A stretch of 27,829 bases of DNA from an uncultured Nitrospiraceae bacterium (GTDB taxonomy: Bacteria > Nitrospirota > Thermodesulfovibrionia > Thermodesulfovibrionales > Dissulfurispiraceae). How positions within the stretch are numbered: the stretch's first letter is position 1; every line of letters starts with the position of its first letter. Positions 2,810 through 25,201 of this stretch are shown here, in pieces. The notes under the pieces were generated by a model that was given only the letters and a program-made list of their open reading frames with translations, was not told the DNA's origin and did not search any database. The position numbers were made by a program, and so were the translations under genes. The stretch is from the NCBI GenBank assembly GCA_963727805.1, contig CAVSHF010000002.1, positions 1-27,829 of the forward strand, read 5' to 3'.

Positions 2810-2949
2810 TATTGATGGATGAGTAGTCTCATATTTAACTGAAGATGAGATGACATCAAGATGGCAAAAAGAAAGGTGGTCACCAAATGCACCAAATAAT
2901 TAGGCGACTTTCCATGATGAGCGGACGGAGCTGACAATTGTAATGACGA

Positions 2950-3981
2950 ATGAACGGGTATATACAGAAGAAGAAGAGGCCTATCTCCGGAGACTTATGT
3001 CTCACGGAACGGACCGGAAAAGGGCGGAATGGTATCTTAACCGAATGCAGACTTGGAAGGAACGAGGACTACGATAAATACACGAAATTTCACCTCTGGA
3101 TGATGGGAGAAGAAACAGGGGATGAGCAGTATGATAACGCCAAGGATATCAAACAACTGAATGCGGTTCTCGAGAAAGGCAATTTTGAAATTCTCAAGAA
3201 GAATATCAGAATCCCTCTCCTGGCCCATATCCCTCATAGTTCTACGACTATCCCGGATGAAATAAGAAAGACCTTCCTGATAGGTGATGCTGCTCTCCAG
3301 AAGGAGTTGCTCCTACTAACCGACAGATACTCTGATGATATTTTCTCAAGCGCCGTCGAGTTGGGAGGAATTGCGTTCGTTTGCCGGCGAAGCAGAATGG
3401 TTGTTGATCCTGAGCGGTTCCCCGATGATAGAGACGAACCTATGTCCCGAAAAGGGATGGGGATAATCTATATGAAAACATCCGACAGTCAGACACTGAG
3501 AAAAAGGATGACTAAAGTGCAGAGGAATACACTTCTCGAGCAATATTACTTGCCTTATCGCCAGGCAATTGAGGATGAAGTGGATAAATTACTGGAGACC
3601 TACGGCAATTGCCTGATTGTAGACTGCCATTCATTTTCATCTTTGCCACTAGCCTTTGAACCAGATCAGGATCCGGACAGGCCGGACATATGCATAGGAA
3701 CCGACTCGTTCCACACGCCTCCTTCACTGGTTAGAAAAGCTGAGAAATGTTTTAAAGCTGATGGATTCTCTGTCAAACTTAACAAACCTTACTCCGGAAC
3801 CTACGTTCCACTCAAACACTTTGAAAAGGACAAAAGGGTGTCGTCTATACTGGTGGAAGTTAACCGAAAGCTCTACATGGAAGAAAGAAGCGGCAAAAAG
3901 TTGAGAACCTATAATAGAATCAAGGATGTGCTCAAGAAGATAATGGGAGAGTTAGCAGCTACAACATCTTACAAATCTTGA
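2950..3981 (+). CDS. N-formylglutamate amidohydrolase-family protein (true start uncertain, probably downstream of 2950)
   Basis: Family motifs HIPHSS, TDRYSD, SRMVVDPERF, LIVDCHSF, RPDICIGTD, NKPYSG, EVNRKLYM. Confidence 0.85.
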   Translation: MNGYIQKKKRPISGDLCLTERTGKGRNGILTECRLGRNEDYDKYTKFHLWMMGEETGDEQYDNAKDIKQLNAVLEKGNFEILKKNIRIPLLAHIPHSSTTIPDEIRKTFLIGDAALQKELLLLTDRYSDDIFSSAVELGGIAFVCRRSRMVVDPERFPDDRDEPMSRKGMGIIYMKTSDSQTLRKRMTKVQRNTLLEQYYLPYRQAIEDEVDKLLETYGNCLIVDCHSFSSLPLAFEPDQDPDRPDICIGTDSFHTPPSLVRKAEKCFKADGFSVKLNKPYSGTYVPLKHFEKDKRVSSILVEVNRKLYMEERSGKKLRTYNRIKDVLKKIMGELAATTSYKS

Positions 3982-4000
3982 CTTGCATGGGGAGAAGATT

Positions 4001-7000
4001 GTGAATCAGCTCCAAAAAAGCATATCGGAAATTTGCATCAAGGATCGCATGCAGGAAAAAATCCTCATAGCCCCGTCGTTTTCCGCAGGTCTTCAGATCG
4101 TCGAATCTGTAGTTAGACAGGAAACACCATGCCTGAATCTGAGGATAAAAACAATCGGATCTCTGGCACATGATTTTGTTGACACGGACTTGGCAAGTGA
4201 TAACATTTCCCTTCTTCCAGATATCGCCATGCTGCTGTTCATAGAAGATATCTTCAACGAGCTCAAGCAGAAGAAACAATCCTACTTTCAGAACATGGAA
4301 GCCAAGGAAGGGATTGTGAGCGCCCTCGCCGGTGCAATTTGTGACTTGAGAATGAACGGTATCCGCAGTAATGACCTCTCTTTAGAACAGTTCGAGAGTG
4401 AGAAAAAGGGTAAAGAGCTAAAGATCATGCTCCATCGATATGAGGGATTTCTGAAAGACAAAAAATACGTGGACACCGCAGAGATTCTTGGCAGTGCTTT
4501 AAAAAAAGCTGTGAGTGGCAAAATTGTCTCGGGCGATACGCTGTATCTTGCGTTGTCGGATACATCCTTCTCTCTTTTGGAAAAGCAGCTTTTCGATGCC
4601 ATGCCCGGCGCAAAGAAGGTGCTGCCTCACGATATCCCCCATGGGCTTCATGCCTTTATAGAGATACCTGCCATTCAGCGAGACTATAGATAATCCGGCC
4701 CCTGCGTCGAATATCGGACTGATGCCATGGCTATTCGAAACTGAAAAGGCTCCTGCTTCTTTTCCCGATGACACCGTCACGCTTTTTCATGCTGTGGGGA
4801 GGAGAAATGAGATAAGAGAAACTTTGAGACGGGTCCTAGCTTCGGGAGCAAAGAGCGATGAGGTTGAGATCGTATACACATCGTATGATGACTACGTGCC
4901 TCTGATCTATGGCACAGCGCAAAAGATCGGAATAGAGATTACGGTGCAGGATGGACTCCCTGTCACATTGACAAGGGTCGGACGAGCGGCATTGGGACTG
5001 ATTTCGTGGATTGCCTCAGATTTTGAGGCCGTTAAGTTCAGGCAGCTCCTCACAGGGGGCTCTTTAGACTTGAAGATTGAGGCTACCAAAGAGGGCTTAC
5101 TTTCTGCTTCAGCTATGGGCAGGATCATACGAGAGTCCGGCATAGGATGGAAAAAGGAGAGGTATCTGCCAATACTTGCAGAAATGGCTGAATCATATGA
5201 AACCCAAGCCAAAGAGAAGGATGAGGACGGACGAGATCGAAGCGAGTTCTACCTAAAAAAAGTGGCCAACGCAAGATTTCTAATCGAGCTAGCGAAAGAA
5301 CTTCTCGAATCGATTCCGGTCGCTGATGGTAATGGTACCGTATCTGTGAGCGATCTTTGTAAGGCAATCATGATGTTTCTTGAATCCTATGCGCGTATTT
5401 CGAATGAATTGGATGGTGAAGCAAAGTCTGTTATAAAGAGTGAACTGGAAGAGACAGTGCTTCTGTCCAGTCAGAGGATGTCGCTTCATGATGCCTTGAG
5501 CAGAGTAGAAATGATGATCAGGGATACAAGTGTTGGCGCTTCAGGACCTGCACCGGGATGCCTCCATCTGTCCTCCTATAAACACGGAGGACGATCTGGA
5601 AGATCTCATACATATCTTGTGGGATGTGAATCTCAACTGCTACCGGGAGGCTCAATACAGAACCCTGTGCTGCTGGACGTCGAACTGGAGGCAATAAGCA
5701 AGGACCTTATGCTTTCTTCTGAACAGATCAAGGAAAATCTCTACCGGATGGCTGCGCTTTTGGCATCATTGAGGGGTCATGTAACGCTCTCCTTTTCTTC
5801 CTTCGATGTGCTGGATAATAGGGAGTCATTTCCGTCATCAATATTACTTCAAGTGCATAGACTTATATCAGGGACTTCGGTGGCTGACTATTCCGACATG
5901 ATGGCAGCATTAGGTTCTCCAGCAGGCTACGTTCCCTCATCAGACCCGATTGACAGCCTCGATTTCTGGGTTAAGAACTATTTCGCTACTGATGGTCTGA
6001 AAAAGACCGACGCCCAAACGATCGCACTTTATCCCGGGCTTTACGAAGGAATCAGGGCAATTGTATCCAGGCAGTCCAACAAGGTGACCGAATACGATGG
6101 GAAAATTACGACGGCAGGGAGAGACCTGGACCCGCGAGTAAACAAGGATCTAGTGATGTCGGCATCGATGATCGAGAAATTGGCTACCTGCCCTTTCTCA
6201 TATCTACTTTACTATGTGCTTAAGGTAAGACCATTGGAAGAAGTCACCATAAACGATGGCGAGTGGCTGGACCCTATGCAAAGGGGTCAGCTTCTGCATG
6301 AGCTGTTTTATGAATTCATGAAAGAGATTACCAAAAGGGATGAAAAGCCTTCAATGAAATTACACCCAAAGCTCATCGAACGGCTCGCGGGAAAGATCAT
6401 CAAAAAATACAAAGAAGAGATCCCACCGCCTGGAGAGGTCTTCTATGAGCAAGAAAGAAAGCAACTCCTTAAAACGGCTTTGGTTTTCCTCAGGGTTGAG
6501 GAGGAGCACTGCAGGCAATGCACCCCGCTTTTCTTCGAACTTGCTTTCGGGTTCAGAGGGGGCGATCAACAGGGCTTGTGTATAAAGGAACCTATTCAAA
6601 TAACCATAGGGGATGGAGAGTCAATCAGACTTAGCGGCCGCATAGACAGGGTAGATAAAATCGGTGATCACGACTATGAAATATGGGACTATAAGACAGG
6701 TGGTACTTACGACCACTCAGACGCCGCTTGTTATAGCGGTGGCAAGACCCTTCAGCACGCGCTCTATGCCGTTGCTGCTGAAATAATCCTTAGGAATACC
6801 GCAGGGGACGAGTCAGCTAGTGTAAAACGGTCGGGATATTTATTCCCCTCAGAGAAGGGTACGGGAAAACGTCTGGCGAGGTCCAGGAACGACAAGGCTC
6901 TCGGAGAAATCCTGAACTGCCTCTGCGATATCTTGAAGGACGGCTTATTTCTGCCGTCGAATGACGAGACCTCTTGCAAATACTGCGAATATACTGGTAT

Positions 7001-7106
7001 TTGCGGTGTTTGCAACTGTGACGTTGTCGCAATGGCAAAAAGCAAGATGGAGAACAACGAAAACACCGAACTGTCGGGACTTAGGAGGGTTAAAGATTAT
7101 GCCTAA
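4001..7106 (+). CDS. AddB-like PD-(D/E)XK nuclease subunit with inactive helicase scaffold; one frameshift near 4650-4690
   Basis: Joins ORFs 3983-4693 and 4722-7106; GTG 4001 follows GGGGAG. C-terminus has SASMIEKLATCPF, RGQLLHELF, GRIDRVD, IWDYKTG, LQHALYA and CKYCEYTGIC (four-Cys Fe-S staple pattern). Confidence 0.85.
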
Positions 7107-10100
7107 GAAAGCAACATCGGCAATTACCCTTACCGACCAATCAGCGAGAGATGCCATTACGGAGCTTCTTGACAAGACCATGATGGTCGAGGCTGGGGCC
7201 GGTTCCGGCAAGACAACCTATCTTGTGAGACGAATGACAGCCCTTATAGCTGAAGGGAAAGCTGAGATCGGGAGCATCGCCGCGGTTACATTCACCAGAA
7301 AGGCTGCAGCGGAACTGAAGCAGAAATTCCAGCTTGCCCTTGAAAAGAGTTTTAAGACTTCTGATAGCTACAGGAAGGAACGAATAGGCTTAGCGCTGCA
7401 AGATCTGGAGCAGGGATTTATCGGTACCATCCACTCATTTTGCGCTCAACTACTAAGAGAGCGTCCTGTGGAGGCTGGAATAGACCCCTCCTTCATTGAA
7501 ATGGACGAGACTGAAGACGGCTTAAACAGTAACACAGCTTGGGAATCATACCTTTCAAAACTGCTCTTCGAAGACGAAAAAGTGCTTTCCAGACTTTACG
7601 AGATGGATGTGACTCTCGCCGAGTTAAACGAGGCCTATCACATGCTGGTGCTATACCCTGAAGTATCAGTAGAAACAGAGGACCGTTCTCTACCAGATAC
7701 CAAGAGGGCCAAGGTGGAAATCTCTAATTTCCTTGCATGTGCTGAACCGATGCTACCCGACTCTGTCCCCGAAAAAGGATGGGACCCTGTACAGGACCAG
7801 GTGATAACTCTGAGCAGGATGATGAAATCACTCGATCCTAACGAAATGAGAGATTTCTTCAGAATTATCTCGCCTCTTGAGGCTGATAAAAAAGCCATAT
7901 TAAACAGATGGCCTTCTAAAGAAGCGGCAAGAAAGGTGGAGTCAATTCTATCAGATCTCAGGACAAGTATTGTCCTGCCCATGCTTACGGCATGGAGACG
8001 GTATCGTCACTCCCATCTCATGGAGATTATCAGACCTGCGGCAGATCTCTGTAAGCAGCGGCGAACTGAGGATTCGATGCTCAATTTTCAGGATCTCCTT
8101 CAATTGGCCTCCACCCTACTCCGGGACAATCCTGAAGTTAGAAAGTATTTCAAAAAGAGATTTACGCATCTTCTCGTCGATGAATTTCAGGATACAGATC
8201 CAATCCAGGCAGAGGTCATGTTTTACCTGACCGGAGCCGATACGACTGAGACAAATTGGAAAAAACTGAAGCCAGAAAACGGTTCTCTGTTCGTAGTTGG
8301 AGACCCAAAACAGTCGATATACAGGTTCAGACGGGCGGACATTGATACTTACAATCTGGTAAAGACACTTATACAGCAATCAGGGGGAGAATTAGTCGAA
8401 CTGAAAAGCAACTTCAGATCCCTTCGATCGATAGGTGATTGGCTCAACCCTATTTTCGAAGCGAGGTTTCCCAAAGAGGGCACGAAGTACCAGGCGAAAT
8501 TCGGCAGATTGGAAACAACAAGAATCGATAATGCTTCATGCATGTCAGGTCTACGCAAAATAACTACTCCAAAAATAGAACGGCACAAAACGGAAGAGAT
8601 TGTGGAAAACGATTCTTTGAAGATAGCCTCCTGGATAAAGCATGCACTGAATGGCGGAATCAAGATAGAAAGGACAGAGGATGAAAAAGTCCTTGGTTTG
8701 ACCGAAAAACCCGTACCATCAGACTTTCTGATACTTGTAAGAAATAGAAAAATGATACCGAAGTATGCCATGCGCCTAGAGGAGCTTGGGATTCCCTTCG
8801 AGGTAGCCGGTGGAAATGCATTCTCGAGCACTTATGCGCTAAATGAAATCGTCAAGATACTTAAGGCAGTAGCTGACCCTGACTCAGCTGTGGATCTGGT
8901 GGCAACCATGAGAGGGCTTTTCTTTGGGATCAGCGACGACGTTCTTTACCAGTTTAGAAAAGCAGGCGGTAGGTTCTCATTCTATTCCGAGGTGCCGGCC
9001 GGAATACCAGCGGCAATTGGCGGCGTCATCATGAGCGCATTTGAAAGACTGCAGTTGTACCGAAACTGGTCCAGAACACTTCCGCCATCAGTTGCCATTG
9101 AGAAGATCATGGAAGATGTTGGGTTAGTACCATTCCTCATCAATCAGGACATGGCTGGAAGCCGAACCGGAAACATCATGAAAGTTCTGGAATATCTCAA
9201 TCGAGCCGAACTAACTGGAGATATGGAATTTCTATCAGTTGTTGAAGGCCTCGAGAAGTTGACGGCTGAAGGAGAAATGGATGAGATCGATATCTCCCAC
9301 GGAGGCCGGAAAGCAGTGCGCATTATGAACCTACATAAGGCAAAGGGACTTGAGGCGCCGGTGGTCTTCATAGCCAACCCGACTGGCAAATCAAATCATC
9401 CACCCATGTTGCACATTCGGCGGGAAACTGATCAGGCTATCGGTCACTTTGTAATCTCTGTTAGATCGAATTTCCATGACAAGATCATTGCGATACCTCC
9501 GGACTGGGATAAATATGAGGCAGAAGAAAATAGCTACGGTGCCGCAGAGGAAGAACGTCTTCTCTACGTTGCTAGCACAAGAGCGAAGAATATTTTGGTC
9601 ATAAGTTCCTACCCCGATAAAGCAGCTGGTAATTACTGGTCTGTTTTTGACCCTTATCTTGCGACAGTGAAAGAACTTGACGCTCCGGAGGCAGAAGCAA
9701 AAGTACTAACAACGTTCTCAGTAACAAAGAACAACTTTGATGAGGCACAGAAGTTATTTAGGCAGAACCTGGAATCTTTTGGCAGACAAACGCATTCGGT
9801 CGTGAGTGTGACATCCCTCCCAAAGGAAGGGATCGCGCTTCCATCCTGGAAGAGAACAGGACGCGGTCTTTCCTGGGGAAACGTAATACATCGAACTCTT
9901 GAAGCTATCAATAAAGGAATCACCGGCAAGGAACTTGATGTGCTGGTTACAAACCTACTTACAAGCGAAGGCCGTCCACTGGACGACAAGGCAACGGTTT
10001 TTTCAGTAATAGAGGAAATCAGGAAGTCGGAATTCTGGAAAGAAGTGGAAAAAGCAGAGAAGAAATTCATGGAAGTTCCCTTTTCCCTTAAACTAAGGCC

Positions 10101-10359
10101 GTCCGAACTCGGACTTAACGTTCCTAAAGGGGAATACGTGATCCTCTCAGGTGTTATCGACCTCGTGTACAAGAATCAAAAGGGTTGGACTATCGTAGAT
10201 TACAAGACTGACGATGTCGGGGACAATATTCAGGATTTCGTAAAGTACTATGCTCCGCAAGTGAAGGTTTATTCCCGTTACTGGGAGGAAACATCCGGCG
10301 AAGCCGTTAGCAAAACTGGGCTGTTTTTTGTGCAGCGTAAGGAATTTATTGAAATATAA
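7099..10359 (+). CDS. AddA-like UvrD/SF1 helicase-nuclease
   Basis: ATG 7099 after AGGAGG overlaps the upstream stop. Motifs AGAGSGKT, VTFTRKAA, TIHSFC, VDEFQDT, VGDPKQSIYRFR, NFRS, HKAKGLE, EERLLYVASTRA; C-terminal RecB-type nuclease GVIDLV...IVDYKT...Q...Y. Confidence 0.95.
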   Translation: MPKKATSAITLTDQSARDAITELLDKTMMVEAGAGSGKTTYLVRRMTALIAEGKAEIGSIAAVTFTRKAAAELKQKFQLALEKSFKTSDSYRKERIGLALQDLEQGFIGTIHSFCAQLLRERPVEAGIDPSFIEMDETEDGLNSNTAWESYLSKLLFEDEKVLSRLYEMDVTLAELNEAYHMLVLYPEVSVETEDRSLPDTKRAKVEISNFLACAEPMLPDSVPEKGWDPVQDQVITLSRMMKSLDPNEMRDFFRIISPLEADKKAILNRWPSKEAARKVESILSDLRTSIVLPMLTAWRRYRHSHLMEIIRPAADLCKQRRTEDSMLNFQDLLQLASTLLRDNPEVRKYFKKRFTHLLVDEFQDTDPIQAEVMFYLTGADTTETNWKKLKPENGSLFVVGDPKQSIYRFRRADIDTYNLVKTLIQQSGGELVELKSNFRSLRSIGDWLNPIFEARFPKEGTKYQAKFGRLETTRIDNASCMSGLRKITTPKIERHKTEEIVENDSLKIASWIKHALNGGIKIERTEDEKVLGLTEKPVPSDFLILVRNRKMIPKYAMRLEELGIPFEVAGGNAFSSTYALNEIVKILKAVADPDSAVDLVATMRGLFFGISDDVLYQFRKAGGRFSFYSEVPAGIPAAIGGVIMSAFERLQLYRNWSRTLPPSVAIEKIMEDVGLVPFLINQDMAGSRTGNIMKVLEYLNRAELTGDMEFLSVVEGLEKLTAEGEMDEIDISHGGRKAVRIMNLHKAKGLEAPVVFIANPTGKSNHPPMLHIRRETDQAIGHFVISVRSNFHDKIIAIPPDWDKYEAEENSYGAAEEERLLYVASTRAKNILVISSYPDKAAGNYWSVFDPYLATVKELDAPEAEAKVLTTFSVTKNNFDEAQKLFRQNLESFGRQTHSVVSVTSLPKEGIALPSWKRTGRGLSWGNVIHRTLEAINKGITGKELDVLVTNLLTSEGRPLDDKATVFSVIEEIRKSEFWKEVEKAEKKFMEVPFSLKLRPSELGLNVPKGEYVILSGVIDLVYKNQKGWTIVDYKTDDVGDNIQDFVKYYAPQVKVYSRYWEETSGEAVSKTGLFFVQRKEFIEI

Positions 10360-11964: not shown

Positions 11965-12963
11965 TCACCTGAAAGTCTTCTGGCACTCCTTATATAGTTT
12001 TTCGGCTTCATCCTCGGACATTGGAACAATCGAGTTTGGGAAATAAAAATCCCTTTGCAACAGCTCCTTAATGTTACTTGTCGTAAGATAATGGAGAATC
12101 GTTCCGTCTTCGAGTTTTACTCCGCTGATAAATTGGCTCAATTTGATTGACCTTTCTTCCTCATCGAGTTCTTCATTGTGTGCATCCTTTATCGTTGCCG
12201 TTCCCTTACCCGCCGCAATGATCCCATAGCCGTTATGATACAGGAAAATGAAAGACTTGTTCATCCACTCTCCGATGATTCCTCTGCGGTCTCCATAGAT
12301 CGCGGCCTTTTTATGCTTGATCATGTCCAAATATGCCTCCGGATAATGAGTCTGGCAAGTGTTGATCCAGCAATTGTATGAATTCTGAGGACAGAAAAGT
12401 TCGTTCGACAATTCGAAGTATCTCTTGCCGGCAACTTCATAGAAACGATAGAAGTATTCTTCTATGTCGACCCCAGATTTTCTCCAGTACTTGGCGATCG
12501 TTCCTGTGTATTCAGAGGATGAGTGTGATATTAAAATAGTTTTTTGTCTCTTATTGAATTCGGTTAAGTCAATCCTATATCCGTAATGCTGCTCAAATGC
12601 ATCTATCAGTTCATTGTCCTGAGGAAAGCACTTCTTGAAATGATTGTTCATTTCGTTGTAACGCCAATAGGAGAAATGTTGGGCATAGCCCAATGCCTGG
12701 TAGACCTTGCCACGATCATAATGTCCATCTACCTTCAATTCGAAGACGACCAGGTCTCCGCTGCTATTCAGAGCAAATAAATCTGCTTCGCTTTGAAACG
12801 ATCGTTCATTTCCAAAGACCAGATATTCAGGGAATAGGATGTCTCCGATTATCTCTTTGAGGTAGTTCTCCAGATTCTTTTCGCTCTCTCCGAGCGAATG
12901 GACAATATTCATCGCTAAAACCGGCTTAAACCCCTTGGACTTATCATCCATCTCGAATAGCAT
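11965..12963 (-). CDS. NucS/EndoMS-like PD-(D/E)XK nuclease with probable EVE/PUA-like C-terminal domain
   Basis: EKNLENYL...EADLFALNSSGDLVVFELK...VYQALGYA nuclease motif. C-terminal IFLYHNGYGIIAAGK resembles the EVE core. Strong SD. Confidence 0.65.
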   Translation of the reverse strand: MLFEMDDKSKGFKPVLAMNIVHSLGESEKNLENYLKEIIGDILFPEYLVFGNERSFQSEADLFALNSSGDLVVFELKVDGHYDRGKVYQALGYAQHFSYWRYNEMNNHFKKCFPQDNELIDAFEQHYGYRIDLTEFNKRQKTILISHSSSEYTGTIAKYWRKSGVDIEEYFYRFYEVAGKRYFELSNELFCPQNSYNCWINTCQTHYPEAYLDMIKHKKAAIYGDRRGIIGEWMNKSFIFLYHNGYGIIAAGKGTATIKDAHNEELDEEERSIKLSQFISGVKLEDGTILHYLTTSNIKELLQRDFYFPNSIVPMSEDEAEKLYKECQKTFR

Positions 12964-13111: not shown

Positions 13112-13501
13112 TTATTTATTTGATATTTCCCCCTCTTCAATAAACTCATTGTGTTCAGTCGTTTTTAGGAATTTTAATATATCTTTTGCGGCTTTGCCAC
13201 CGATTTTTCTTATCGCCATAATGGCTTCTTCCTGTATAGATATGTCGTCGTCATACAGAGCTATCGATTGCAGAAGAGGCAGCGCCTTCTTGATTTTTCT
13301 TTTTCCGATAGCACCCAATGCCTCATAGACCAGAGTAATTTCGGAGCTTTGAAGCATTTCAAGCAACTCCTGCTCCTCATAGGCTGCCGCGTTTTTCACT
13401 CCTTCATCAAAAGCAACCGTCGTCCTTTGAACTTTCGGGTGCTGGTCAGGTACGTAAGATTCATAGTCGGCTTTGGTTGGATATTCTTTATCGTCAGTCA
13501 T
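13112..13501 (-). CDS. HEAT-repeat (PBS-lyase-like) protein
   Basis: EALGAIGKRKIKKALPLLQSIALYDDDISIQEEAIMAIRKIGGKAAKDIL, two HEAT-like units. Confidence 0.75.
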   Translation of the reverse strand: MTDDKEYPTKADYESYVPDQHPKVQRTTVAFDEGVKNAAAYEEQELLEMLQSSEITLVYEALGAIGKRKIKKALPLLQSIALYDDDISIQEEAIMAIRKIGGKAAKDILKFLKTTEHNEFIEEGEISNK

Positions 13502-13506
13502 ACTTC

Positions 13507-13542
13507 ACTATAGAATAAATCACTGCCAGCATCCTGGCAGCG
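13507..13542 (-). promoter_or_regulatory. Putative WYL box 1 plus -10 element
   Basis: CACTGCCA-gcatcc-TGGCAGCG (13521-13542). Minus strand reads TGGCAG-tgatttattc-TATAGT, then 5 nt to the ATG of the HEAT gene. Confidence 0.7.
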
Positions 13543-14476: not shown

Positions 14477-15960
14477 TTAAATCGATCTCATGCTGTCCAA
14501 TATTTTCACCATCGCGAATGTATCCAATTTGCAGTAATCAAGAAGTGCCTTTCGTATTGCTAATTTTTCAGACTCCTCGGTTGATTTCTCAGTTTGAAAT
14601 AAGCATCCACGGCCATACCGCCGTTTTGGATTTCACAGTCACTATATTTAAGGTCAGAGACCAATGAGGGCAGGACGTACTTAATCGAAGAGGACCCTTT
14701 CATATCCGGCTTGTAGACAACCTTTCTTCTGAAGGGTTCGGCAAAGATCTCTAATATTATCAACAATCTGCTGTAACAGTTTTTGCTTCTTGGGGAACCA
14801 ATCTCCTAAAGAATTAAGAATAGTTTTTTCGAAGCTGGTATAGACGACGATGCAAGACTTCTTAGGAATAATTCGTAACAGGTTCTGCAGCAACTCTTCC
14901 CTAGAATCTATAGTCGGATCACCCAGGTACTCGAAATGCTCTGGCTCGGCGCCTTTTTTTCCTATAATATGAATCGAAAACTGGAATGGCACCTGCTGGT
15001 ATGGCCTGATTCCGTCATAGGCAGGCACTGCTGTTGTATAGGTCTCAAAGTCTAGGAATACCATTGGGTGCCATAGTGAGTCCAGAAACTGTTTACATTA
15101 GTCTTATCAACTCAGGATTTTCCGTCTATATGGGCTGCAACCTGAAGCCTCTGTGAGCCATTGAGGATCTCCAGCGGTATGTCGGCCAATCTGATCGTCC
15201 CTTGCCTATATAGATCAAAAGTGTTCACTCCTCTTCCTTTTAGCGAGAACACCGAGTCTTCCGGTAAGTGTTTCAAGCAGTGACCCATAAAATCACATCC
15301 ATAAGGATCCTTGCAATGCTCACCGATATCAATGACGGGTTCGGAGCCAGTAAGCATTTTCTTCATCTTTTTAATCTCTTTTTCAACCTTCTCCTGCAAA
15401 CCCAATACTGCTTTTGTAACATCAACGATCGTGAATAGTTCACTAAGATTTATATCGCCGTGTCGCTCGTATTCGTTGTTGATGTGGATGACGTGCGCTT
15501 TGCCAACGGGCAGGCCCGCTTTCGACATAAGATTGTACTGGATGGCAACATTGTCCAGATACACATCTTTCACATCGGTAGATGACTTCACCTCATAGAG
15601 ATTCCAGCGTCCTCTTGTCTTCTTAATGATATCGGCCCGCGCCATAACACCATCGTGTTCAATAGCCGCTTCATAAAGTATTGTGGCGCCGGATGCAAGG
15701 GCATCTTCAGTCATGCAGAGCTGCTCAGGCAACTCATAGTCGCTGCTGGTTGCCAGCACTCCGCCTGGGAAAAGTTCTTGGGCTAGTTCACCGACTTCGT
15801 GACCTTGCGAAAACCTCATCAACAGGTCTGTAGAAAGCTCATCCCTAAGTTCGGGATGGTACTTCTGCAGATAGAGGGATTTATGACATTGAAGCCCTCT
15901 AATGTAAAGGGATTTGCTCAGACCTGTCTTCTGGTGCTCGATATTTGTTTCACTCATCAT
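14477..15960 (-). pseudogene. DUF2779-domain protein (N-terminal PD-(D/E)XK/Cas4-like + RNase H-like domain), interrupted about 4 times
   Basis: LSKSLYIRGLQCHKSLYL, ARADII, EVKSST, HCKDPYGCDFMGHC, FLDFET, RPYQQVPFQFSIH, GSSSIKYVLP, ALLDYCKLDTFAM occur across frames. TGA at 15112-15114 plus shifts near 15093, 14744 and 14585. Confidence 0.85.
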
Positions 15961-15991: not shown

Positions 15992-16917
15992 TTATTTATT
16001 CTTATTAGCTGCTGCTGTAAGCTCATTATTGAGCTCCTTTCTTAAGGACATCGGGGAAATCACCTCGACATGAGGTGACCAGCCCAAGAGCCACTTGAGC
16101 AGACCAAAGCTGTCCTTAGCCTGGAAACTTATCTCAATACTTCCGTCGGTAAGTATCTCACTCTGCTGGCCCGATACCCACTGCCTTCTCTGGATCAGTT
16201 CGACCACCCCGACGTCAAAACGCAGGACCACATCTATTTCTTCCCCATCAAGCCAGGGGCCGAACACCGGAACTGGTTGACTTGCCCCATTGTCAGTCCT
16301 TCGGGGATAGTAGCGGTTGATCATCTTTAAATCAAGTATCCGGTCCAGCGCAAGGACTCTGAACTCCTCGTTATCGTGGCAGAAACCCCGCAGATACCAG
16401 AATGAGTCAGAAAAGAAAATATAGTATGGATCTACATCTCTCCTGACTTCTTGCCCGAGGAGGATGATGCGTACAGAAGATTAACGGTCTTGCCCTCGTT
16501 GATTGCCAAGTGCAGGATTTCCAGATATTCCTTAATCTTAGGCGGAGATTTATATATAGGGAGGATAATGCTTTGTCGGGTGCTTTTCTTCTTTGACTTC
16601 AGCTTGGTTTCGAGGGATTCGAGATTCTGTTCAAGAGATGTCCCGAAATTCTTAAGAATTCCTTTGGCAAGGGCGATTGTCAACGACTCTGCATCACTTA
16701 GTTCCGGCTTGCTGATAGAAAATCCCTCTTCGAAGACGTAACTCTCCTTCTGCTTATCGTATATTATGCGAATATTGGCGCGCCTCAGGATATCAACGTA
16801 CCGGAATACGCTGCGCTCGGAAATGCCGAAGTCATTCATCAGAGAGTATTTCGTCACCTTCTCTTTCCTGTCGATCTTTCGAACAATATCCAGCATCATA
16901 TCGAACTTAGATGACAT
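15992..16917 (-). CDS. HTH-WYL-WCX transcriptional regulator (PafB/DriD/YafY-like); frameshift near 16440
   Basis: N-terminal wHTH (FGISERSVFRYVDILRRA). After the shift: RDVDPYYIFFSDSFWYLRGFCHDNEEFRVLALDRI (WYL). C-terminal WLLGWSPHVEVISPMSLR (WCX). SD AGGAGG. Confidence 0.92.
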
Positions 16918-16977: not shown

Positions 16978-17022
16978 ATAATACACGTACTCACTGCCAG
17001 ATGTCTGGCAGTGAGTACGTGT
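16978..17022 (-). promoter_or_regulatory. Putative WYL box 2 (autoregulatory) within a perfect 19-bp-arm palindrome, plus -10 element
   Basis: ACACGTACTCACTGCCAGA-tg-TCTGGCAGTGAGTACGTGT (16983-17022). Minus strand reads TGGCAG-tgagtacgtg-TATTAT, ~60 nt upstream of the WYL ATG. Confidence 0.8.
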
Positions 17023-17079
17023 GATATTCGGGTGACGCATTCAAGATTGCCGGATGCATTGTGGTCCTCTTGGAACCTC

Positions 17080-18674
17080 CTAAAACAGCCTCCTGCTTTT
17101 CTTGAACAACATGCTTATTGGTAGGAGTGCTTCGCGCAAAATTTCTGTCATTTGCTCATTTTGTGAATCATAAGCAAGGGAAAGCAGCTTTACGTTCTGC
17201 TGAAACTGCGTGAACTGATACGGATCCAGTTTCAGCAATTGCAGCTTAATATCCGACTCGATATCTTTATCTACTTTACTGGTTATTATCCATTCATTGA
17301 CCAGCGCCATTTGCATGGCATCGTTTGCAAAACTCAAATTTATATCTACATGAAAGAACGGATCAATGGTAAATGCCGGGATACGCCCGCCTGCGAAAAA
17401 GGCCAGGCCCCGGTATTGCCTGAAACTCTTGATCAGCAAATTACCGATCCACTCTGGCAGAGACGGGCGTCCCAGATAAGCGAAATGGCAGTCATCCACA
17501 ACGATTATCACATCATTGGTTGCAGCTGCTCTCTCGAAAAATTCATTATTCATTTTTTTTATCTCACGATGTCCCTCCATCGAAAGAGCGCTTAGATGCA
17601 TCTCCATTACATTTCGCTTTAACCGCGCGGCGGCAGCATAAGCTACTATTGAACGACGATCGGGCCTATCTCCCCAAAGCATTACCTTTAACCCTTTTAC
17701 GGAGTCATCGTTGCAATCTACGGCTTCCGTTTCAAGCCTCTGTGCAATCCGGATCAGCGAATAGAATTTACGGTTAGCGAGTTCAGGCAATTTCAGGCTT
17801 TCAGGGCCATCTTTCGGCTTGATAACTTTATAATATTTTTGATCTACTCCAATTTCCATGCTCTGCAGTTTTGCCCCATATTCCAGGTCTTCATGAGTTA
17901 GCACGAGCTGATTGTTATCTCTTTCAAAAACCCTATGCAGAGCAGCGATAACAGAATTTTTTATATATCCACCTGTAAGCAAATACTTTTGTGCGAGGCT
18001 TCTGAAATCAATATCCCGGTCACAGGCTATGCGCTCCGGTATATGCACTTTCCAAAGCTTTTGCGCATTTCTTCGTCCGGAACCGGCAGCTCAATCTTTA
18101 AACTTACCCTACGATCAAATGACTTTCCAACCCTTTCGGGGTAATTAGTAGCCAATATCACCATTCCATCGCTCTCTTCGAGTTCATTGAGCAGTGTATC
18201 GTATTCAGTTGTTCGTTCATCCATGAATCGGTCGCATTCGTCAATGAATACAATGCCACTCTTTTCTTTGGCCAGTTTGAACAGCTCTTCTATTGCGTGG
18301 TCCGAATATCCGCCTGGTCGGTCAAACCTGATGCCTTGCTCTCCTTTCAGTCCGAAAAGCGGCTTTCCCATAATTCTTGAGATGGACCGGGCCAATAGGG
18401 TCTTACCTGTGCCCGGGCGACCATATACCATGATAGTCGTGCCTCGCCCGTAAGTGATCAGACGATCGATTCCGAGCTCTGAAAATCCCCGTTTTACCAA
18501 ATCATGGTTTCGAATGAATAACAGAACTTTCCCCTTGATGTCGGAAGACATCACCATATTATTTAGTTCATTGTTAGCGGACATTACATCCGTCGGGGAA
18601 ATAGTTTCACAATACTGATCTTCCATATGCCGGCTGCTTCCATTGCCTCCGTTGCCTCTGTCTGCTGGAATCAT
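17080..18674 (-). CDS. Tandem AAA+ ATPase (active D1, degenerate D2); frameshift in the A-run at 18059-18062
   Basis: D1: YGRPGTGKT, VFIDECD, LATNYPERVGKSFDRRV. Adding one A restores RKKLWKVHIP...LTGGYIKNSV. D2: MLWGDRPDRRS (no Walker A Lys), IIVVDD. Confidence 0.88.
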
Positions 18675-18686
18675 GATCTCTTTCTC

Positions 18687-19238
18687 CTATTTGGCGGAAT
18701 ATACGCCATCGGCGATTCCGTACTGGATGGCCTCAGCAGGTGTGAGCCAGGTATCGACATCCCTTAATAATAGCGTCTCGACTTCCTGCCGAGTCTGGAT
18801 ATTAGAATGGGATATATAGTGCTCAATAAGCCTCTCATGTAGAAAATCCTCCTCTTTCCTGCGCGCTATTAGTTCAGAATGGTTTCCCATGCTGATTGAG
18901 AAAAAGCGATGCGACAACAGCGATGTGCGTGGCGTAAGTATGCGATGGTCTTTGTTTCCAGACATAAAAATACCCAGAGCCATGGAAGCAACAAGTCCAA
19001 GCCCAGTAGTGTATACTGGCAGCGAAGACCATTCCATCATGTCAATAATTGCAAACCCTGCCGATATGTCCCCACCGCTTGAATTGATTATCATCTGAAT
19101 GTGGTCGGCCGGGCGTTCCAGATTGATTCTGATAATATCCCGGCATATTCTTTCAGCCGCCCCGCCATCTATTCCACCAGAAATGAAAATGATTCCGTAG
19201 TCCTCTGTCGACTTTCTCGAACTCTTCTCTTGTTCCAT
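18687..19238 (-). CDS. clpP: ClpP-family serine protease proteolytic subunit (divergent paralog)
   Basis: INSSGG, AGFAIIDMM, GLVASMA (catalytic Ser), LLSHR (His), RDVDTWLTPAEAIQYGIAD (Asp). SD AGGAGG. Confidence 0.92.
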   Translation of the reverse strand: MEQEKSSRKSTEDYGIIFISGGIDGGAAERICRDIIRINLERPADHIQMIINSSGGDISAGFAIIDMMEWSSLPVYTTGLGLVASMALGIFMSGNKDHRILTPRTSLLSHRFFSISMGNHSELIARRKEEDFLHERLIEHYISHSNIQTRQEVETLLLRDVDTWLTPAEAIQYGIADGVYSAK

Positions 19239-19283: not shown

Positions 19284-19319
19284 AGATTAATCAAACCCGC
19301 TGCCACAAGCTTGGCGGTG
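19284..19319 (-). promoter_or_regulatory. Putative WYL box 3 plus -10 element for the clpP-AAA operon
   Basis: CGCTGCCA-caagct-TGGCGGTG (19298-19319). Minus strand reads TGGCAG-cgggtttgat-TAATCT. Confidence 0.7.
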
Positions 19320-19363: not shown

Positions 19364-19399
19364 GGCCGCCAGGCATCTGGCAGTGCCAAATGCGATTAT
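19364..19399 (+). promoter_or_regulatory. Putative WYL box 4 facing the DnaB-like gene
   Basis: GGCCGCCA-ggcatc-TGGCAGTG (19364-19385). Plus strand reads TGGCAG-tgccaaatgc-GATTAT (one mismatch to TAnnnT). Confidence 0.6.
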
Positions 19400-19522: not shown

Positions 19523-20479
19523 GTGGATATGGTTGAACCGGAGACAGGCAACGTGGATTCCATTCGGGATGCAGTAAAAGATGCTTTCAAGATAGTAGAG
19601 GTTCTTCATGATATGAAAAAGTGTCACGGACTAAAGATTTTGTCGGGCTTTAAGCAACTAGATACCATCTTATCCGGGTTCTTCGTCGGCGATGTGTACG
19701 TGGTATGCGGAGAACCAGGAGTCGGCAAATCATCCTTCGTATACAGTATTGCAAGAAATCTTGCTGTAAAGATGAAGCCTCCAATAGCTTTGGCTTTATT
19801 TAGCTTAGACAAAACGCCGGATCATCTAGCTCTAAAACTTCTATGCGCTGAGGGAGAAACATCATACTGGGGAACGACGTCGGGCAATATAACAAGAGAC
19901 GATTGGCCCAAACTCACTAGCGCGGCAGGACGATTGGCGCAATCTCAAATTTATATAAATTATTCCAATATTGCATCGGCGCAAGATTTAATAAAGCAGA
20001 TCAGTAATCTGGTTGCTAGAAAGTCGAACATATCTCTTTTGATAATTGATTCTTTGCAAAATCTAGTGCCCGAAGACAAGGCAACGGCTTCCGAGTGCCT
20101 CAGAACTTTGAAAGAGACAGCCTTAAAACTAAGACTGCCTATTATTATCACAAGTAGTATTAATATGAAGAAATACCCGAGGAATAAAAACCCGATAGCT
20201 GCAGACCCTAATTATAGCGTGATCACAAAATATTCCGACGTAGTGCTGATATTGCGAAAAGGTGAATGCGAGACCTCACTTCCTTCCATCAAAGAGAGCC
20301 CTTCCTGCAGGTATCAGAATGCGCTGATAGCCAAGATGAAGATCGAAATAACTATCGCCCAGAAGACAAATGGCTTAACGGGGACCCTTTTTCTCGATTA
20401 CATGCCTCAGCATGGCGGGTTCGAGGACATGGATGAGAGACCGGATTCGGCACCAGTAGAATGGTCTGATGCGTATTAA
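19523..20479 (+). CDS. DnaB-like RecA-fold ATPase, C-terminal domain only, degenerate
   Basis: SGFKQLDTILSG, GEPGVGKS, FSLDK, DWPKLTSAAGRL, LLIIDSLQ, LKETALKLRLPII. No N-terminal primase-binding domain. Confidence 0.85.
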   Translation: MDMVEPETGNVDSIRDAVKDAFKIVEVLHDMKKCHGLKILSGFKQLDTILSGFFVGDVYVVCGEPGVGKSSFVYSIARNLAVKMKPPIALALFSLDKTPDHLALKLLCAEGETSYWGTTSGNITRDDWPKLTSAAGRLAQSQIYINYSNIASAQDLIKQISNLVARKSNISLLIIDSLQNLVPEDKATASECLRTLKETALKLRLPIIITSSINMKKYPRNKNPIAADPNYSVITKYSDVVLILRKGECETSLPSIKESPSCRYQNALIAKMKIEITIAQKTNGLTGTLFLDYMPQHGGFEDMDERPDSAPVEWSDAY

Positions 20480-21154: not shown

Positions 21155-22019
21155 TTACAGATACCTTTCACTTAGATACCGAATATACTCGCCGTGGTGA
21201 GACCGCCATTGACTCGCCAATTTAGCAATCAATTCCTGATATGTCAGCGAATGGAACTTGATTCCGTCTTGCTTTGCCACTTTCGTAAACTCTGTAATTT
21301 CATCCTGATGACATTTACCTTGTTCGCCAAGCACGTCGTACCACAGGTAAAGTAGTCGGAAACCACCCGCTCCAAATTGCCGCTTCAGACCGAGAACGTG
21401 CTTTATCAACTGCGCTGGGTGCAGATGCTTAAATTCATTGTCATCTGGTGAAATCCGTTCCGCAAAGGCTCTCAAACCAGGGATATCACTCCAAATATCA
21501 CCACAGTCCAGGTACTTTTGCTTAAGTCCACCGTGACTATACGCACCGTACGCTTCAGAAAACTTACATTCGATGGCAAACCGCTTATTTTTTGCCTAGG
21601 GCTCGTTGTGGATAACGACATCTATATTAGGGATGAAATCCAAAGCTGTCGCCGATCGGGTACTTCTCCTCGAACTGAATATCGCGGGAAATCTCCGATC
21701 CCTCACGGCAAAAGCCGCACGCCGCTGAGATAATGGGAACTGCCAAGATCGATTTCCAGTACTGGAATACATTCACGCCTAATGCCGAGGATGAGTGTAT
21801 AGCTTGCATTTTCCCAGGCATGCCGCAAGAACCTAGTTCGCCGCCATCTCCTTTGGAAAAGGAACTGCGCACCTCCGGAAGCAATGGTTGAAAGAGCTTG
21901 AAATCAAGGTCTGTGGTGTACGCAGGGCGACCACGATTCGCTCTGCTGCCGATGAGGTCTAAGCCCCGGTTCTTGGCCCATTCAGTTTGTTTAACCAGGA
22001 TGTATTGATATCCGTTCAT
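21155..22019 (-). pseudogene. Putative restriction endonuclease (PD-(D/E)XK, PGN_0703-like); frameshift near 21630 and in-frame TAG at 21596-21598
   Basis: KMQAIHSSSALGVNVF, IQFEEKYP, then in the shifted frame PNIDVVIH...FAIECKFSEAY, then HLHPAQLIKHVLGL...LLYLWYD...LTYQELI. Probable start ATG 22019. Confidence 0.75.
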
Positions 22020-22073
22020 CGTGCTTTTATTCCGAATGTCTGCCACATAATACATTGCTTTCCCATGCAATGC

Positions 22074-25000
22074 TTACCCTCCCCTCCTATTATCCTCAAA
22101 CATCTCTACTGGCATTGGATGCTGTAAATTCCAAACCATCTTGATAGGCCGCTCATCTTCGTATCTGACTAATTTCACAGGTCCAAGATAGGTAAACGGC
22201 ACCGTGACCCCGTTCCGCTTTTTTTGGTCACGGGCAAAAACTAAGATTGTATAGTCACGATTCACATGGTGAATAAGATTCTGGCCGGTTTCAGACTGTT
22301 GAGATGTCGTTGACTGCGACTCCCAGTGTAGTAGTTCCCTGCTAATCGGGTAATCAGCATACATGGTACTCGGGGAAAACTCCTTTTCAGTCTTCTGAAA
22401 GGTTATAGCAGGGCATAGGTTTTAAATTCCGAAAAATGAAACGATCCCACACCTGTTTGCCCAGCTGTCTCTAAGGTTGCCCGGCCAAAAACCGCCTGAA
22501 TCTCCTTGATCCCATAGTGGGCATGAAGTTCAAGTGGACAGGCAAAAGGCAAATCAGGTCTCCTGCCGCTAACCTCGGTTGTATCAAGCGCCCAAGCAAG
22601 TATCTCATCCAGATCGGACAAAATGGACGGATTTGTGGCTAGTCGGCGGAAGGCATCTTCAAGGGATGTTATGCCGAGATTGGTACCTTTATCTCCCCAG
22701 AGTCGGTAGTACAACATCATGACCGAGTCCCCTGCGAGTGCAATTGCCTCAGTAATAGCACCATTGGAGACTAGTTTAAGAACTTCGCGTAACAACGTGG
22801 CTTCTTTCGGCCCATTGATAAATACCGCCCGTATCAGGGTTTTCTTCAGCCTCGCCAGATCAGGGTCATCGGGTATCGAACCAAGCTGTGTCTTAGCTTT
22901 CCACCCAGACCACGTCTCACTAGCCAGAAGTACTTCCGGATCGTAATCGTGATAGCGAATGAAATTGCCAAAGGTCAGCACTTGTCCAGTTTCGCTCGTA
23001 AATGTCTGTAGCCTATCAGGCACCTGAGCGGCTAATCGGCCGAGGTTTTCCTTTATGTTCTCCAAGACGTACTGCCGCGAGAGGCGGTCAAGCTGAATGG
23101 AACAACCGGCCGGAAGATGGGGGAAATCGAGCTCCACTTCCTTGTCAATAGAATAGCGATGCCGTGGCATAAGCGCCTTGAGCTTTGTGTCGGACCGGTA
23201 TCTTCGGTGCGCCTGGCCGACAAAATCGAGCACTGTAAGGCAATCTTTTCCAGGAGCATGGCGCAAGCCTCGTCCCAGCTGCTGAAGGAAGACGGTCAGG
23301 CTTTCGGTGGGTCGGAGGAAGAGAACGGTGTTCACCTCGGGCACGTCGACACCTTCACTGAGTTTGTCGACAGTGAATAGAAAAGTGAGCGTTCCGTTTT
23401 TTAGGTCGGTAAGCAAATTCTGACATTGTTCATCGTCAACCCCAGATACAAAGGCACCCGATGGGATCCTCATCTGCGTGAACTGGTTAGCCATGAAGAC
23501 GGCATGTTTGATAGTGACACAGAAACCAATTCCCTTGACGGTGTTCAGGTCAGACTCATAGCGATTAAGTGCCTCCACAATGGCATTAACTCGTTGATCT
23601 GCTCGTGCACGATCCAGCACATAGACTTTCTCTAAGGCCGCGGCATCATATTTGCCATTGCGCCAGAATTGGTCCTGATTTATGGCAATCGGATCGGCAA
23701 CCCCGAAATAATGGAATGGGCACAGGAGCTTCTCCTCCAACGCCTCAGGCAAGCGTATCTCAGCGGCAAAGCGATTACCAAAGTCGGCCGCTACGTTGTC
23801 GCCGTCCATACGCTCTGGTGTGGCCGTCAGACCGAGGAGTATTTTCGGGGTGAAGTTATCGAAGATTGGCCTATAGCTGTTAGCAGTACCGTGATGTGCT
23901 TCATCGACCACGATGTAGTCGTAGAAATCCTCACCGACCTGCTCCCACAAGCGTCTGCTTGTAAGCATTCCAACAGAGCAAAACAGGTGTTCGAGGCGGT
24001 TGGCCTCATAAGGACCGACTAATAGCTCACCAAAATTTTGGTCACGCAATACATTACTGAAGATCGCCTGTGCCTGCTGAAGAATCTGCTGACGGTGGGC
24101 GATGTAAAGGAGTCGAACCTGCTGTTGTTTCTTTTCGAAGAATTGCTTGAAGTCAAAGGCCGCAACAACGGTCTTGCCGGTACCGGTAGCTGCTATTACT
24201 AAGTTACGCCAGCGGCCATGCGTGTTACGCTCCCGTTCCAGTGCCTCAAGAATGCGCTCCTGAAATGGGTGAGGCCTAAGATCAAAGAAGACTGCCGGTC
24301 CATTTGTTCTGGTATTGCGAGCTCGATCAATAGCAGTTCGAAAGAGTGTCGGATTTTCGGGATCAAAAGGTACAAACTCCCGACTGTTCCAGTAGGTCTC
24401 AAACTCGATGCTAAATTTCTCTAGGATGTGCCCCATGTCCTGGGCAGTTACTTTAAGATTCCATTCTAGCCCGCTTGTAATGGCTGCATGGGACATATTG
24501 GACGATCCAATATAGGCCGTGGAGAATCCGCTGTTGCGCCTAAAGTGGTAAGCCTTGGCATGAAGCCGAGTTCGCTCGATATCATATGAGACGCGTACTT
24601 CTACATTAGGCATATGAGCTAACCATTCCACAGCCGGAGCATCGGATGCCCCCATGTAGGAGGTGGTAATGAGACGGACCGGGACATTACGATCGCGAAG
24701 ATCCTCAAATGTTGATATCAATAGGCGCAGTCCTGACCATTTTATGAATGAGACCAGGATATCCACTGCATCGGCAGAACGCATCTCAGCTTGCAACTCA
24801 TGTGAAAGTTGTGGTTCCTGGGGAGAGCCGGTAAAAAGACTGCTTTCCACTATCGGAGTGTGGGGGCGAGTAATGCCTGACGTACCATAATTCGGAGGAG
24901 TGATTTCCAGGAGCACCGGTTTTGCGGCAGGTACCAGTCGATGCTTTTCAAAGTGGTTCCTGACCGGCTCTTTGGCAACCTGCTCTAGAATCAGGTTGCA

Positions 25001-25201
25001 CAGACCCAGTCGTCTTTCAGGATCAGATTCTTCTCGTAAAGCCTGCTCGAGTACCTTTGCTACGAATGACGCATACCGGGCCGGCTGCTCCTCAGGTTCG
25101 ATTTTGCCAAAAACAGTCCTCAACTCCGGATGCTGGACTAGCGCATCTCGAAGGTATTCATCAAGAAGCTCCTCATATATTCCGTGAGCAAAATGCTTCA
25201 T
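22074..25201 (-). CDS. PLD nuclease-SF2 helicase-DUF3427 fusion (SauUSI-like type IV restriction enzyme); frameshift near 22405
   Basis: LHAKAY...YIGSSNMS (PLD HxK), ATGTGKT, VVDEAHH, GLTATPER, LQQLGRGLR. The C-terminus continues after the shift as ITFQKTEKEFSPSTMYADYPISRELLHWESQS...FTYLG (DUF3427). Confidence 0.92.

Follow-up and report, generated by a model that had tools for sequence, protein, structure and literature searches.

A ClpP paralog encoded beside a tandem classical-clade AAA+ ATPase with a candidate ClpP-docking tail

In the literature consulted, the ATPases that work with ClpP belong to the Clp/Hsp100 group and dock by means of an internal IGF/LGF loop, while docking through a C-terminal tail is a feature of activators of the 20S proteasome. 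The ClpP-docking motif is given as (L/I/V)-G-(F/L), held in clefts between ClpP subunits (sections of PMC8745299, PMC7112951 and PMC10149685), and that for 20S as HbYX, hydrophobic-Tyr-X (excerpts of PMC7226402 and PMC6017811). Here we describe a locus in which a ClpP paralog is encoded together with a classical-clade ATPase. The stretch analyzed, hereafter the window, is an entire contig of 27.8 kb (27,829 nucleotides, nt) from an uncultured Nitrospiraceae bacterium, whose genome comprises 3.9 Mb in five contigs. On its reverse strand, a clpP paralog encoding 183 residues (18687..19238) precedes a gene for a tandem classical-clade AAA+ ATPase with an active first AAA domain (D1), a dead second one (D2) and an LF tail (17080..18674, reverse strand; 531 residues if intact), with only 12 nt between the clpP stop and the ATPase ATG, as a preliminary description of this DNA, made from the sequence alone, had reported. 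The two genes form a conserved operon, and we propose that the ATPase docks onto its own ClpP through the LF(G) tail, where it would use ATP to activate the protease and to select its substrates, probably under the control of a WYL regulator upon DNA damage or the arrival of foreign DNA. Taken as a whole, this proposal has in our judgment an even chance of being right. Its parts differ in strength: that ClpP and the ATPase are physical partners in some form is highly probable, and tail docking with activation is likely.

As in ClpXP, ClpAP and ClpCP, the protease has the ClpP fold and a Ser-His-Asp triad, clpP is immediately followed by an AAA+ gene, and the candidate plug for inter-subunit ClpP clefts is a hydrophobic tripeptide. 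In contrast to these machines, the ATPase is classical-clade and not Clp/Hsp100, the tripeptide is a C-terminal LF(G) tail instead of an internal IGF/LGF loop, the canonical pore loop is missing, and the ClpP has lost the N-terminal hairpin and carries a remodelled cleft. The locus would encode a compartmental AAA+ protease with an undescribed ClpP-ATPase pairing. A full-text literature search returned no title or abstract describing an operon of ClpP and a classical-clade ATPase, although supplementary tables or subscription papers could list one; excerpts of PMC7824862 mention phage ClpPs and not their pairing with a tandem ATPase.

The preliminary description had set the co-occurrence of both genes in other genomes as a test of the pairing. 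A search of GTDB genomes with an alignment of 43 ClpP sequences yielded 78 loci, one of which (L081) was dropped as an unrelated weak match, and a family ATPase lies directly downstream of ClpP in 73 of the remaining 77, broken and contig-end copies included. Searches that started from the ATPase agreed with this result. Among 301 genomes of the phylum of locus L036, 14 matched and contained four family members, all adjoining ClpP, whereas the ten distant winged-helix AAA proteins from the same search had no ClpP in the 9-14 kb read around them (0/10). A profile of the sister group matched 23 of 251 and 5 of 125 genomes of two more phyla, and the 25 matches examined out of 29 included five family members, each adjacent to ClpP. 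Together, the ATPase-first searches covered 677 genomes of three phyla and found ClpP next to nine of nine family members, three of which are the search centre genomes, with three to eight candidates scored per genome. In a metagenome scan with the ATPase alignment, whose patterns were too general, one of the top three loci examined (out of 80) is a family member with ClpP. Collections of plasmid and phage records held no family member, the best among the matches listed reaching 34% and 43% identity.

The hosts are mostly Thermodesulfobacteriota, with others in Nitrospirota, Planctomycetota, Gemmatimonadota, Acidobacteriota and further phyla. In the order to which the window belongs, the family profile matched only 2 of 61 genomes, the window's own and that of a second member of its genus (G006); thus, the module is accessory. 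Pairwise distances of ClpP and ATPase correlate closely (Spearman 0.86, 48 loci), and in the 30 loci that could be compared for three genes, the correlation was 0.82 for ClpP and ATPase, 0.49 for ClpP and the WYL protein and 0.60 for ATPase and the WYL protein. The order of ClpP followed by ATPase is fixed, while the other genes of the putative regulon shuffle. At one locus, L071, a gene for 235 residues stands between clpP and the ATPase gene.

The ClpP paralog matches PF00574 with an E value of 1.5e-34 (119.9 bits; cut-off 20.2), and its predicted structure (predicted local distance difference test, pLDDT, 88) has a template modelling (TM) score of 0.86 to solved ClpPs that are only 26-30% identical to it. 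The catalytic triad, already recognized as intact, consists of S85 (18984-18986), H110 (18909-18911) and D162 (18753-18755); it is invariant in 71/71 family ClpPs and aligns with the triad of 13 housekeeping ClpPs. The closest GTDB relative is the ClpP of locus L004, with 86% identity. Compared with housekeeping ClpP, all 71 aligned family ClpPs are missing the sequence of the N-terminal hairpin together with the YSRL segment. At the positions corresponding to H/Y61, Y63 and Y/F83, they carry Q (71/71; Q48 in the window), I/V and W (71/71; W70 in the window), and V replaces R171 in 70 of 71. From S. aureus and E. coli ClpP, we take positions 61, 63 and 83 to be the docking cleft and R171 to be a ring-ring contact. 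A cleft altered in this way but constant across the family is consistent with a dedicated partner.

In a quick maximum-likelihood tree, a single branch splits off the 71 family ClpPs (Shimodaira-Hasegawa-like approximate likelihood-ratio test, SH-aLRT, 100), the 13 housekeeping ClpPs form a side of their own (SH-aLRT 100), and seven phage ClpPs lie in between; the latter had been retrieved with family patterns, so that their closeness to the family is partly a matter of selection. Grouping with housekeeping ClpP, which had been named beforehand as grounds for abandoning the pairing, was thus not observed. A canonical ClpP is also present in all ten genomes checked that carry the family, and in one control genome without a family gene; one of these canonical copies is frameshifted. 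The genome of the window has its housekeeping clpP elsewhere, next to genes resembling tig and clpX (the latter with an IGF loop), and the two ClpPs share 28% identity. We rejected a duplicate of the housekeeping ClpP, since the match to the housekeeping model TIGR00493 (70.1 bits) is below its equivalog cut-off of 308.6, the clade is separate, and the gate segment and canonical cleft are missing. A phage ClpP-type head maturation protease was rejected as well (NF045542, 70.8 versus 120 bits); families of capsid or portal proteins were absent both from the 20 open reading frames (ORFs) of the window and from the 79 neighbours that were scanned. PADLOC gave no match to the ClpP. The phage relatives at loci L082-L094, which form the nearest outgroup to the family ClpPs in the tree, in some cases adjoin a gene for a single-strand DNA binding protein (phrog_224) or lie close to one for a ribonucleotide reductase. 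None of the 13 ClpP matches in IMG/VR (34-44% identity) has the family ATPase beside it.

The ATPase matches PF00004 (E 1e-18). Its D1 holds a Walker A motif, GRPGTGKT (residues 85-92; 18399..18422, reverse strand), a Walker B motif, VFIDE, and a second region of homology (SRH), LATN...FDRR (residues 174-189; 18108..18155, reverse strand), with N177, R188 and R189. Walker A, Walker B, the sensor asparagine and both arginines are invariant in 55/55 family ATPases, while D2 has neither GKT nor the Walker B glutamate. The SRH had been noted before, but it is a short form in which the arginines are adjacent (RR), unlike the RPGR form of PAN and Cdc48. The assignment to the classical clade agrees with the predicted structure of the L004 ATPase (pLDDT 81), whose best Foldseek matches are Rix7, p97/Cdc48 and NSF/Sec18. 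Among NCBIfam models, no family came near its cut-off (TIGR01243, 59 against 803; PAN, 56 against 500), and no ClpX, ClpA or ClpB model matched at E up to 1e-5. The lack of an internal IGF/LGF loop also holds in the intact copy of the protein, P0242, which contains no internal [ILVM]G[FL] tripeptide.

A typical partner ATPase has about 750 residues and consists of a winged helix (PF22977), an active AAA domain and a dead one. The winged helix is absent from the window lineage (P0242, P0122 and P0123, plus the sister P0125; support 100). The family ATPase is homologous from end to end with a sister group that has two active AAA domains (hhalign probability 100). In the ATPase tree, built with FastTree, the D2-dead family was not recovered as one supported clade. 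An atlas look-up of the dead D2 returned generic AAA clusters only. With the AAA proteins of PF22977, which presumably include the Afp15/Pvc15 type of contractile injection systems, the family shares full-length homology, the winged-helix domain included; in the distant members examined, however, the active site is in the last domain and there is no ClpP nearby, whereas here D1 is active and D2 is dead. The ATPase also resembles Cdc48/p97, PAN, Mpa/ARC and Cpa, the ATPases working with 20S, in being a classical-clade AAA+ protein with tandem domains (Foldseek matches to Rix7 and p97) and in having a flexible C-terminal tail through which it is proposed to contact a protease. It differs from them in that its presumed partner is ClpP and not a 20S core, no family member ends in HbYX and D2 is dead; at the N-terminus, family members carry a winged helix or no such domain, where Cdc48 has its N-domain. 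Membership in Cdc48 was rejected on the TIGR01243 score (59 versus 803), the dead last AAA ring and the LF rather than HbYX tail.

The two AAA domains had been described as one protein, and this holds for the domains, not for the gene as assembled: a frameshift of one base near 18060 splits it into ORFs at 18027-18674 (215 residues) and 17080-18048 (322 residues). The WYL and DUF2779 genes of the window are frameshifted too, which is what one would see if all three were real pseudogenes in a module decaying in this organism. This explanation is very improbable. P0242, an intact ATPase of 531 residues from the 90% cluster of the window fragments, encoded on a separate 3.9-kb contig, agrees with the window before and after the break (99.7% over 327 residues; four mismatches in the first 209 residues, where the frames part). 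The same contig encodes an intact WYL protein of 308 residues (P0248) that likewise fits the window sequence to the left and right of the WYL break. Another contig carries breaks in these genes at different places, and all four module genes are intact in G006. Because intact copies match both sides, the break in the ATPase gene is most likely a sequencing or assembly error, as judged from database proteins and not from reads, and we take the other breaks for assembly errors as well. The comparison with near-identical copies covered the ATPase and WYL genes.

Next, we considered the tail. The window ATPase ends in KKSRRLF (17083..17103, reverse strand), a candidate ClpP-docking motif singled out in the preliminary description, which had pointed to the terminal LF. 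L530 and F531 proved invariant in 55/55 aligned members, and LF is the core of a family-wide LFG tail: LFG occurs in the last 22 residues of 49 of 51 complete partner ATPases (at least 500 residues, without X), compared with 4 of 1657 background windows. The two complete partners without it are those of L004, which ends in LF, and L011. The tail of P0125, VLFG, bridges the LFG and bare LF forms. In the predicted ATPase structure, the region is flexible (pLDDT below 50 at residues 522-528).

We compared these tails with those of the best 150 representatives of a 50% library, found without reference to ClpP by a profile that includes the tail and thus slightly biases the ranking; 13 partial sequences were set aside. 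The 73 D2-dead proteins comprised 66 with LFG, one with an LF end, two with other GF-type tails and four with none. In contrast, LFG was found in none of the 64 D2-active sister proteins, of which 41 had [ILVMF]G[FL] and 23 other endings. Six of these 64 end in HbYX, against a background of 0.6% per position, and five of the six fall in one clade of nine rows (support 97), which itself sits within GF-tailed rows. The clusters of the six HbYX members and of a clade-mate ending in MFL are named as eukaryotes, in one case via a cluster member, and from the species names we take them to be amoebozoan, euglenid, haptophyte, green-algal, dinoflagellate and diplonemid. Three GF-tailed proteins looked up alongside them had no name. 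The proteins P0326, P0362, P0366, P0371, P0374, P0386 and P0390 make up this eukaryotic winged-helix double-AAA branch with mostly HbYX ends, which is possibly an undescribed 20S partner in protists and algae. The HbYX ends of these eukaryotic sisters are a further trait in common with the 20S-type ATPases.

Thus, across a single lineage, the last residues alternate between the two motifs already known for protease docking and a third one, found together with a private ClpP. Because the tails of its sisters read as the ClpP-docking type or as HbYX, the tail is likely a protease plug, and this series of GF, LFG and HbYX is the strongest indirect argument for it. The same data bear on the possibility that the two proteins never touch, that is, that ClpP and ATPase are merely co-regulated in the WYL regulon and the ATPase remodels other complexes, its tail serving its own assembly or another partner. 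Operon-mates can be co-inherited without touching, and related AAA proteins with similar tails have no ClpP gene nearby. However, the replacement of [ILVMF]GF by LFG goes along with the gain of the private ClpP (0/64 D2-active versus 66/73 D2-dead proteins), the ClpP cleft is remodelled yet invariant, the tail becomes HbYX in the eukaryotic sisters, and the ClpP-ATPase order stays fixed while other regulon genes shuffle. We therefore regard the absence of contact as decidedly improbable.

Several observations weigh against tail docking onto a private ClpP or against its proposed setting. The window lineage has lost the G and ends in LF, and LFG itself deviates from the (L/I/V)-G-(F/L) consensus. 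The HbYX members largely belong to one clade and are not independent events. No clpP was found in the 4-15 kb read around bacterial AAA genes with [ILVMF]GF tails (0/8 loci, L260-L267; genomes G435, G508, G388, G385, G594, G575, G507 and G660); these proteins may use the housekeeping ClpP. At L267, a WYL gene lies about 1.1 kb upstream. For mycobacterial Cpa, a passage of PMC6017811 reports that loss of the last five residues leaves 20S binding unchanged, so a tail of this kind need not be the docking element. Four loci hold ClpP without an intact ATPase: L038 and L063 have an intact ClpP and no ATPase, L072 has a broken ClpP and an ATPase remnant, and L079 has a truncated ClpP. The distance correlations speak for joint inheritance and not for contact, as operon-mates share their history anyway. 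The WYL gene was not found in 17 of the 57 loci with enough upstream DNA, and the counts of neighbouring genes given below are raw, with no genomic background beside them. Finally, the canonical aromatic pore-1 loop is found in 0/65 family D1 domains, which leaves substrate entry unexplained.

The pore loop is the main result counting against a standard unfoldase. In the sister group, the canonical loop sits in D2 (49/57) and never in D1 (0/60), and in the family it was lost along with D2 activity. As the ring with the canonical loop in the sisters is the dead ring here, the standard picture of unfolding is weakened. A processive unfoldase could nevertheless use the same tail docking, with D1 gripping its substrate by a non-canonical, lineage-specific loop and threading it through the dead D2 into ClpP, like ClpX or Cdc48. 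The invariant D1 motifs (55/55) and a fold closest to Rix7, p97 and NSF/Sec18 agree with such a motor, and 48 of 65 family D1 loops contain an aromatic residue of some kind. In contrast, this loop segment is conserved neither in length nor in sequence. We consider the unfoldase unlikely.

A further explanation is a toxin-antitoxin or abortive infection system resembling IetAS (Gao_Iet), in which the gate-less ClpP is a toxin that the ATPase holds inactive through its tail until infection frees it. Like IetAS, the module consists of two genes, for an AAA+ ATPase and a serine protease, and its D1 resembles IetA; it differs in its ClpP-type protease, IetS being subtilisin-like, and in an ATPase with two AAA domains and an LFG tail. 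In IetAS, according to PMC13069673, the toxin is a serine protease and the antitoxin an ATPase. The best PADLOC match of the family ATPase is indeed IetA (E 7e-19), the N-terminal hairpin region is missing in all aligned family ClpPs, ClpP is broken in two of the four loci that have only ClpP, and the window also holds type IV restriction-like and PDC-S11-like genes. However, the IetA match covers D1 only and scores 62.8 bits against 510 (NF042959), on which, together with the ClpP-type protease, we rejected membership in IetAS. In addition, ClpP is intact at L038 and L063, where the ATPase is missing, and filling the clefts activates, rather than inhibits, known ClpPs, at least in the parts of PMC7112951 and PMC8745299 that deal with them. 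Such a toxin is quite unlikely. The abortive infection suggested in the preliminary description comes from the gene neighbourhood only, and nothing identified phage or replication proteins as substrates, as had also been suggested there.

Downstream of the ATPase gene, the window encodes a transcription regulator with helix-turn-helix (HTH), WYL and WCX domains (15992..16917, reverse strand; 308 residues if intact, as in P0248; frameshift near 16450) and a DUF2779-domain protein (14480..15960, reverse strand; split in the window, 500 residues and intact in G006), which we take to be a nuclease. These are followed by a HEAT-repeat protein gene with its own operator copy (13112..13501, reverse strand), whose orthologue in G006 is divergent from clpP. 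Putative operator copies lie upstream of clpP at 19366..19385 (copy 1, CACTGCCA-N6-TGGC) and 19300..19319 (copy 2), upstream of the WYL gene within a palindrome with 24-nt arms (16978..17027; core operator 16992-17013) and upstream of the HEAT-repeat gene (13521..13542). The pattern CACYGCCA-N6-TGGC has five matches at these four sites and none in 100 shuffles; since it was derived from the window sites, the independent check is provided by the three matches at equivalent places in G006. The other 3.87 Mb of the genome contain three matches. In the wider family, the motif occurs in 1 of 72 upstream regions. A second dyad, TGTC-N7-GACA with at most one mismatch, is found in 32 of 72 family upstream regions and in 6 of 70 coding controls, the same data from which it was picked; in the family, it mostly precedes the estimated start of clpP by 54-102 nt.

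Where the upstream DNA extended to 1400 nt or more (57 loci), the WYL gene is divergent in 32 and lies elsewhere in 8. This regulator resembles BrxR, DriD and PafBC in being an HTH-WYL-WCX protein encoded beside its module, with inverted repeats upstream of itself and of its presumed targets; here, however, it would act on the private ClpP, the ATPase and a varying set of nucleases. BrxR co-localizes with defence systems and binds to inverted repeats, and ClpP goes unmentioned in the main text of the source (PMC9122601, in the parts available). The WYL gene and the palindromic operator suggest an inducible regulon with variable nucleases, which fits the inducibility assumed in the preliminary description. 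DriD, for its part, is reportedly activated by single-stranded DNA (ssDNA).

DUF2779 proteins are encoded at 20 family loci. The 76 other ORFs downstream of the module (40 loci) gave 12 PADLOC matches at E up to 1e-8, some via generic domains only, and Pfam domains including PD-(D/E)XK, REase-ARP, ERCC4, GmrSD, AbiE, Nmad2, RtcB and UDG, while about half had no match. A role in defence is plausible, and a DNA-damage response fits equally; an anti-phage role is, in our estimate, somewhat short of an even chance.

Our model can be set out as follows. The WYL protein would bind the palindromes seen upstream of clpP, of its own gene and of the HEAT-repeat gene, and a nucleic-acid signal such as ssDNA would switch the regulon on, by analogy with regulators of the DriD/BrxR type. 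The ATPase hexamer would present six flexible tails from its D2 face to the hydrophobic clefts between ClpP subunits, and the changes in the tail (LFG, not IGF) and in the cleft (Q, I/V and W, not H/Y, Y and Y/F) would prevent mixing with the housekeeping ClpXP. ATP turnover in D1 may then switch assembly and target capture, which is more likely than processive threading, as the canonical pore loop is missing from both rings; this is the least certain step. The activated, gate-less ClpP would cut a few regulatory or invader proteins, alongside the co-induced nucleases.

We tentatively extend this hypothesis to a lineage of p97-like ATPases with a swappable plug, in which an IGF-type tail serves the bacterial housekeeping ClpP, HbYX the eukaryotic 20S and LFG a private gate-less ClpP. 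The family may then be a new class of AAA+ protease across the Clp/proteasome divide, an ATP-switched activator and not a threading motor, inducible by invading or damaged DNA. This extension is possible, and we hold it with clear reservations. If true, tail docking of a classical-clade ATPase on ClpP would link the Clp and proteasome architectures, and three residues would decide which protease an ATPase serves. Many bacterial AAA proteins with IGF-like tails would gain a testable function, and the naturally orthogonal ClpP-ATPase pair could be used for degradation tools. If the link to the WYL protein holds, regulated proteolysis would join the outputs of DNA-sensing regulons. Locus L036, from the cultured host Geomobilimonas luticola, offers a directly testable pair of two small genes.

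Other genes around the module were also recorded. On the other side of the two operator copies from clpP, and divergent from it, the window has a gene (19523-20479, forward strand) for a DnaB that has the C-terminal domain but not the N-terminal one and shares 35% identity with the other DnaB of the genome; in G006, the HEAT-repeat gene takes this place. At L008, L013, L014, L061 and L071, a protein cluster whose representative has a DnaA ATPase domain is found near the module. REase-ARP genes, mostly together with ERCC4-domain genes, lie 3' of the ATPase gene at L046, L047, L056 and L065, and the window has a weak REase-ARP match at 21155-22070 (reverse strand). Beside it, at 22074-25201 (reverse strand), is a PLD-helicase gene, apparently split near 22400, with a PADLOC mREase_IV match of 553 bits, and a PDC-S11-like gene (E 2e-19) occupies 11965-12963 (reverse strand). 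A pair that we label AddAB-like spans 3983-10359 (forward strand) and encodes a UvrD-like helicase of 1132 residues as well as a protein whose C-terminus weakly matches Cas4 and which seems to be split into 236 and 794 residues. The region 8-2288 is a tandem duplication of about 1145 bp (96% identity) with two DUF4258-like ORFs and a MerR-type HTH, and it may be real or an assembly artefact of the contig end. Between these, at 2946-3951, lies a gene for an N-formylglutamate amidohydrolase, of which another contig of the genome (C3; the window is C2) carries a copy with 80% identical DNA.

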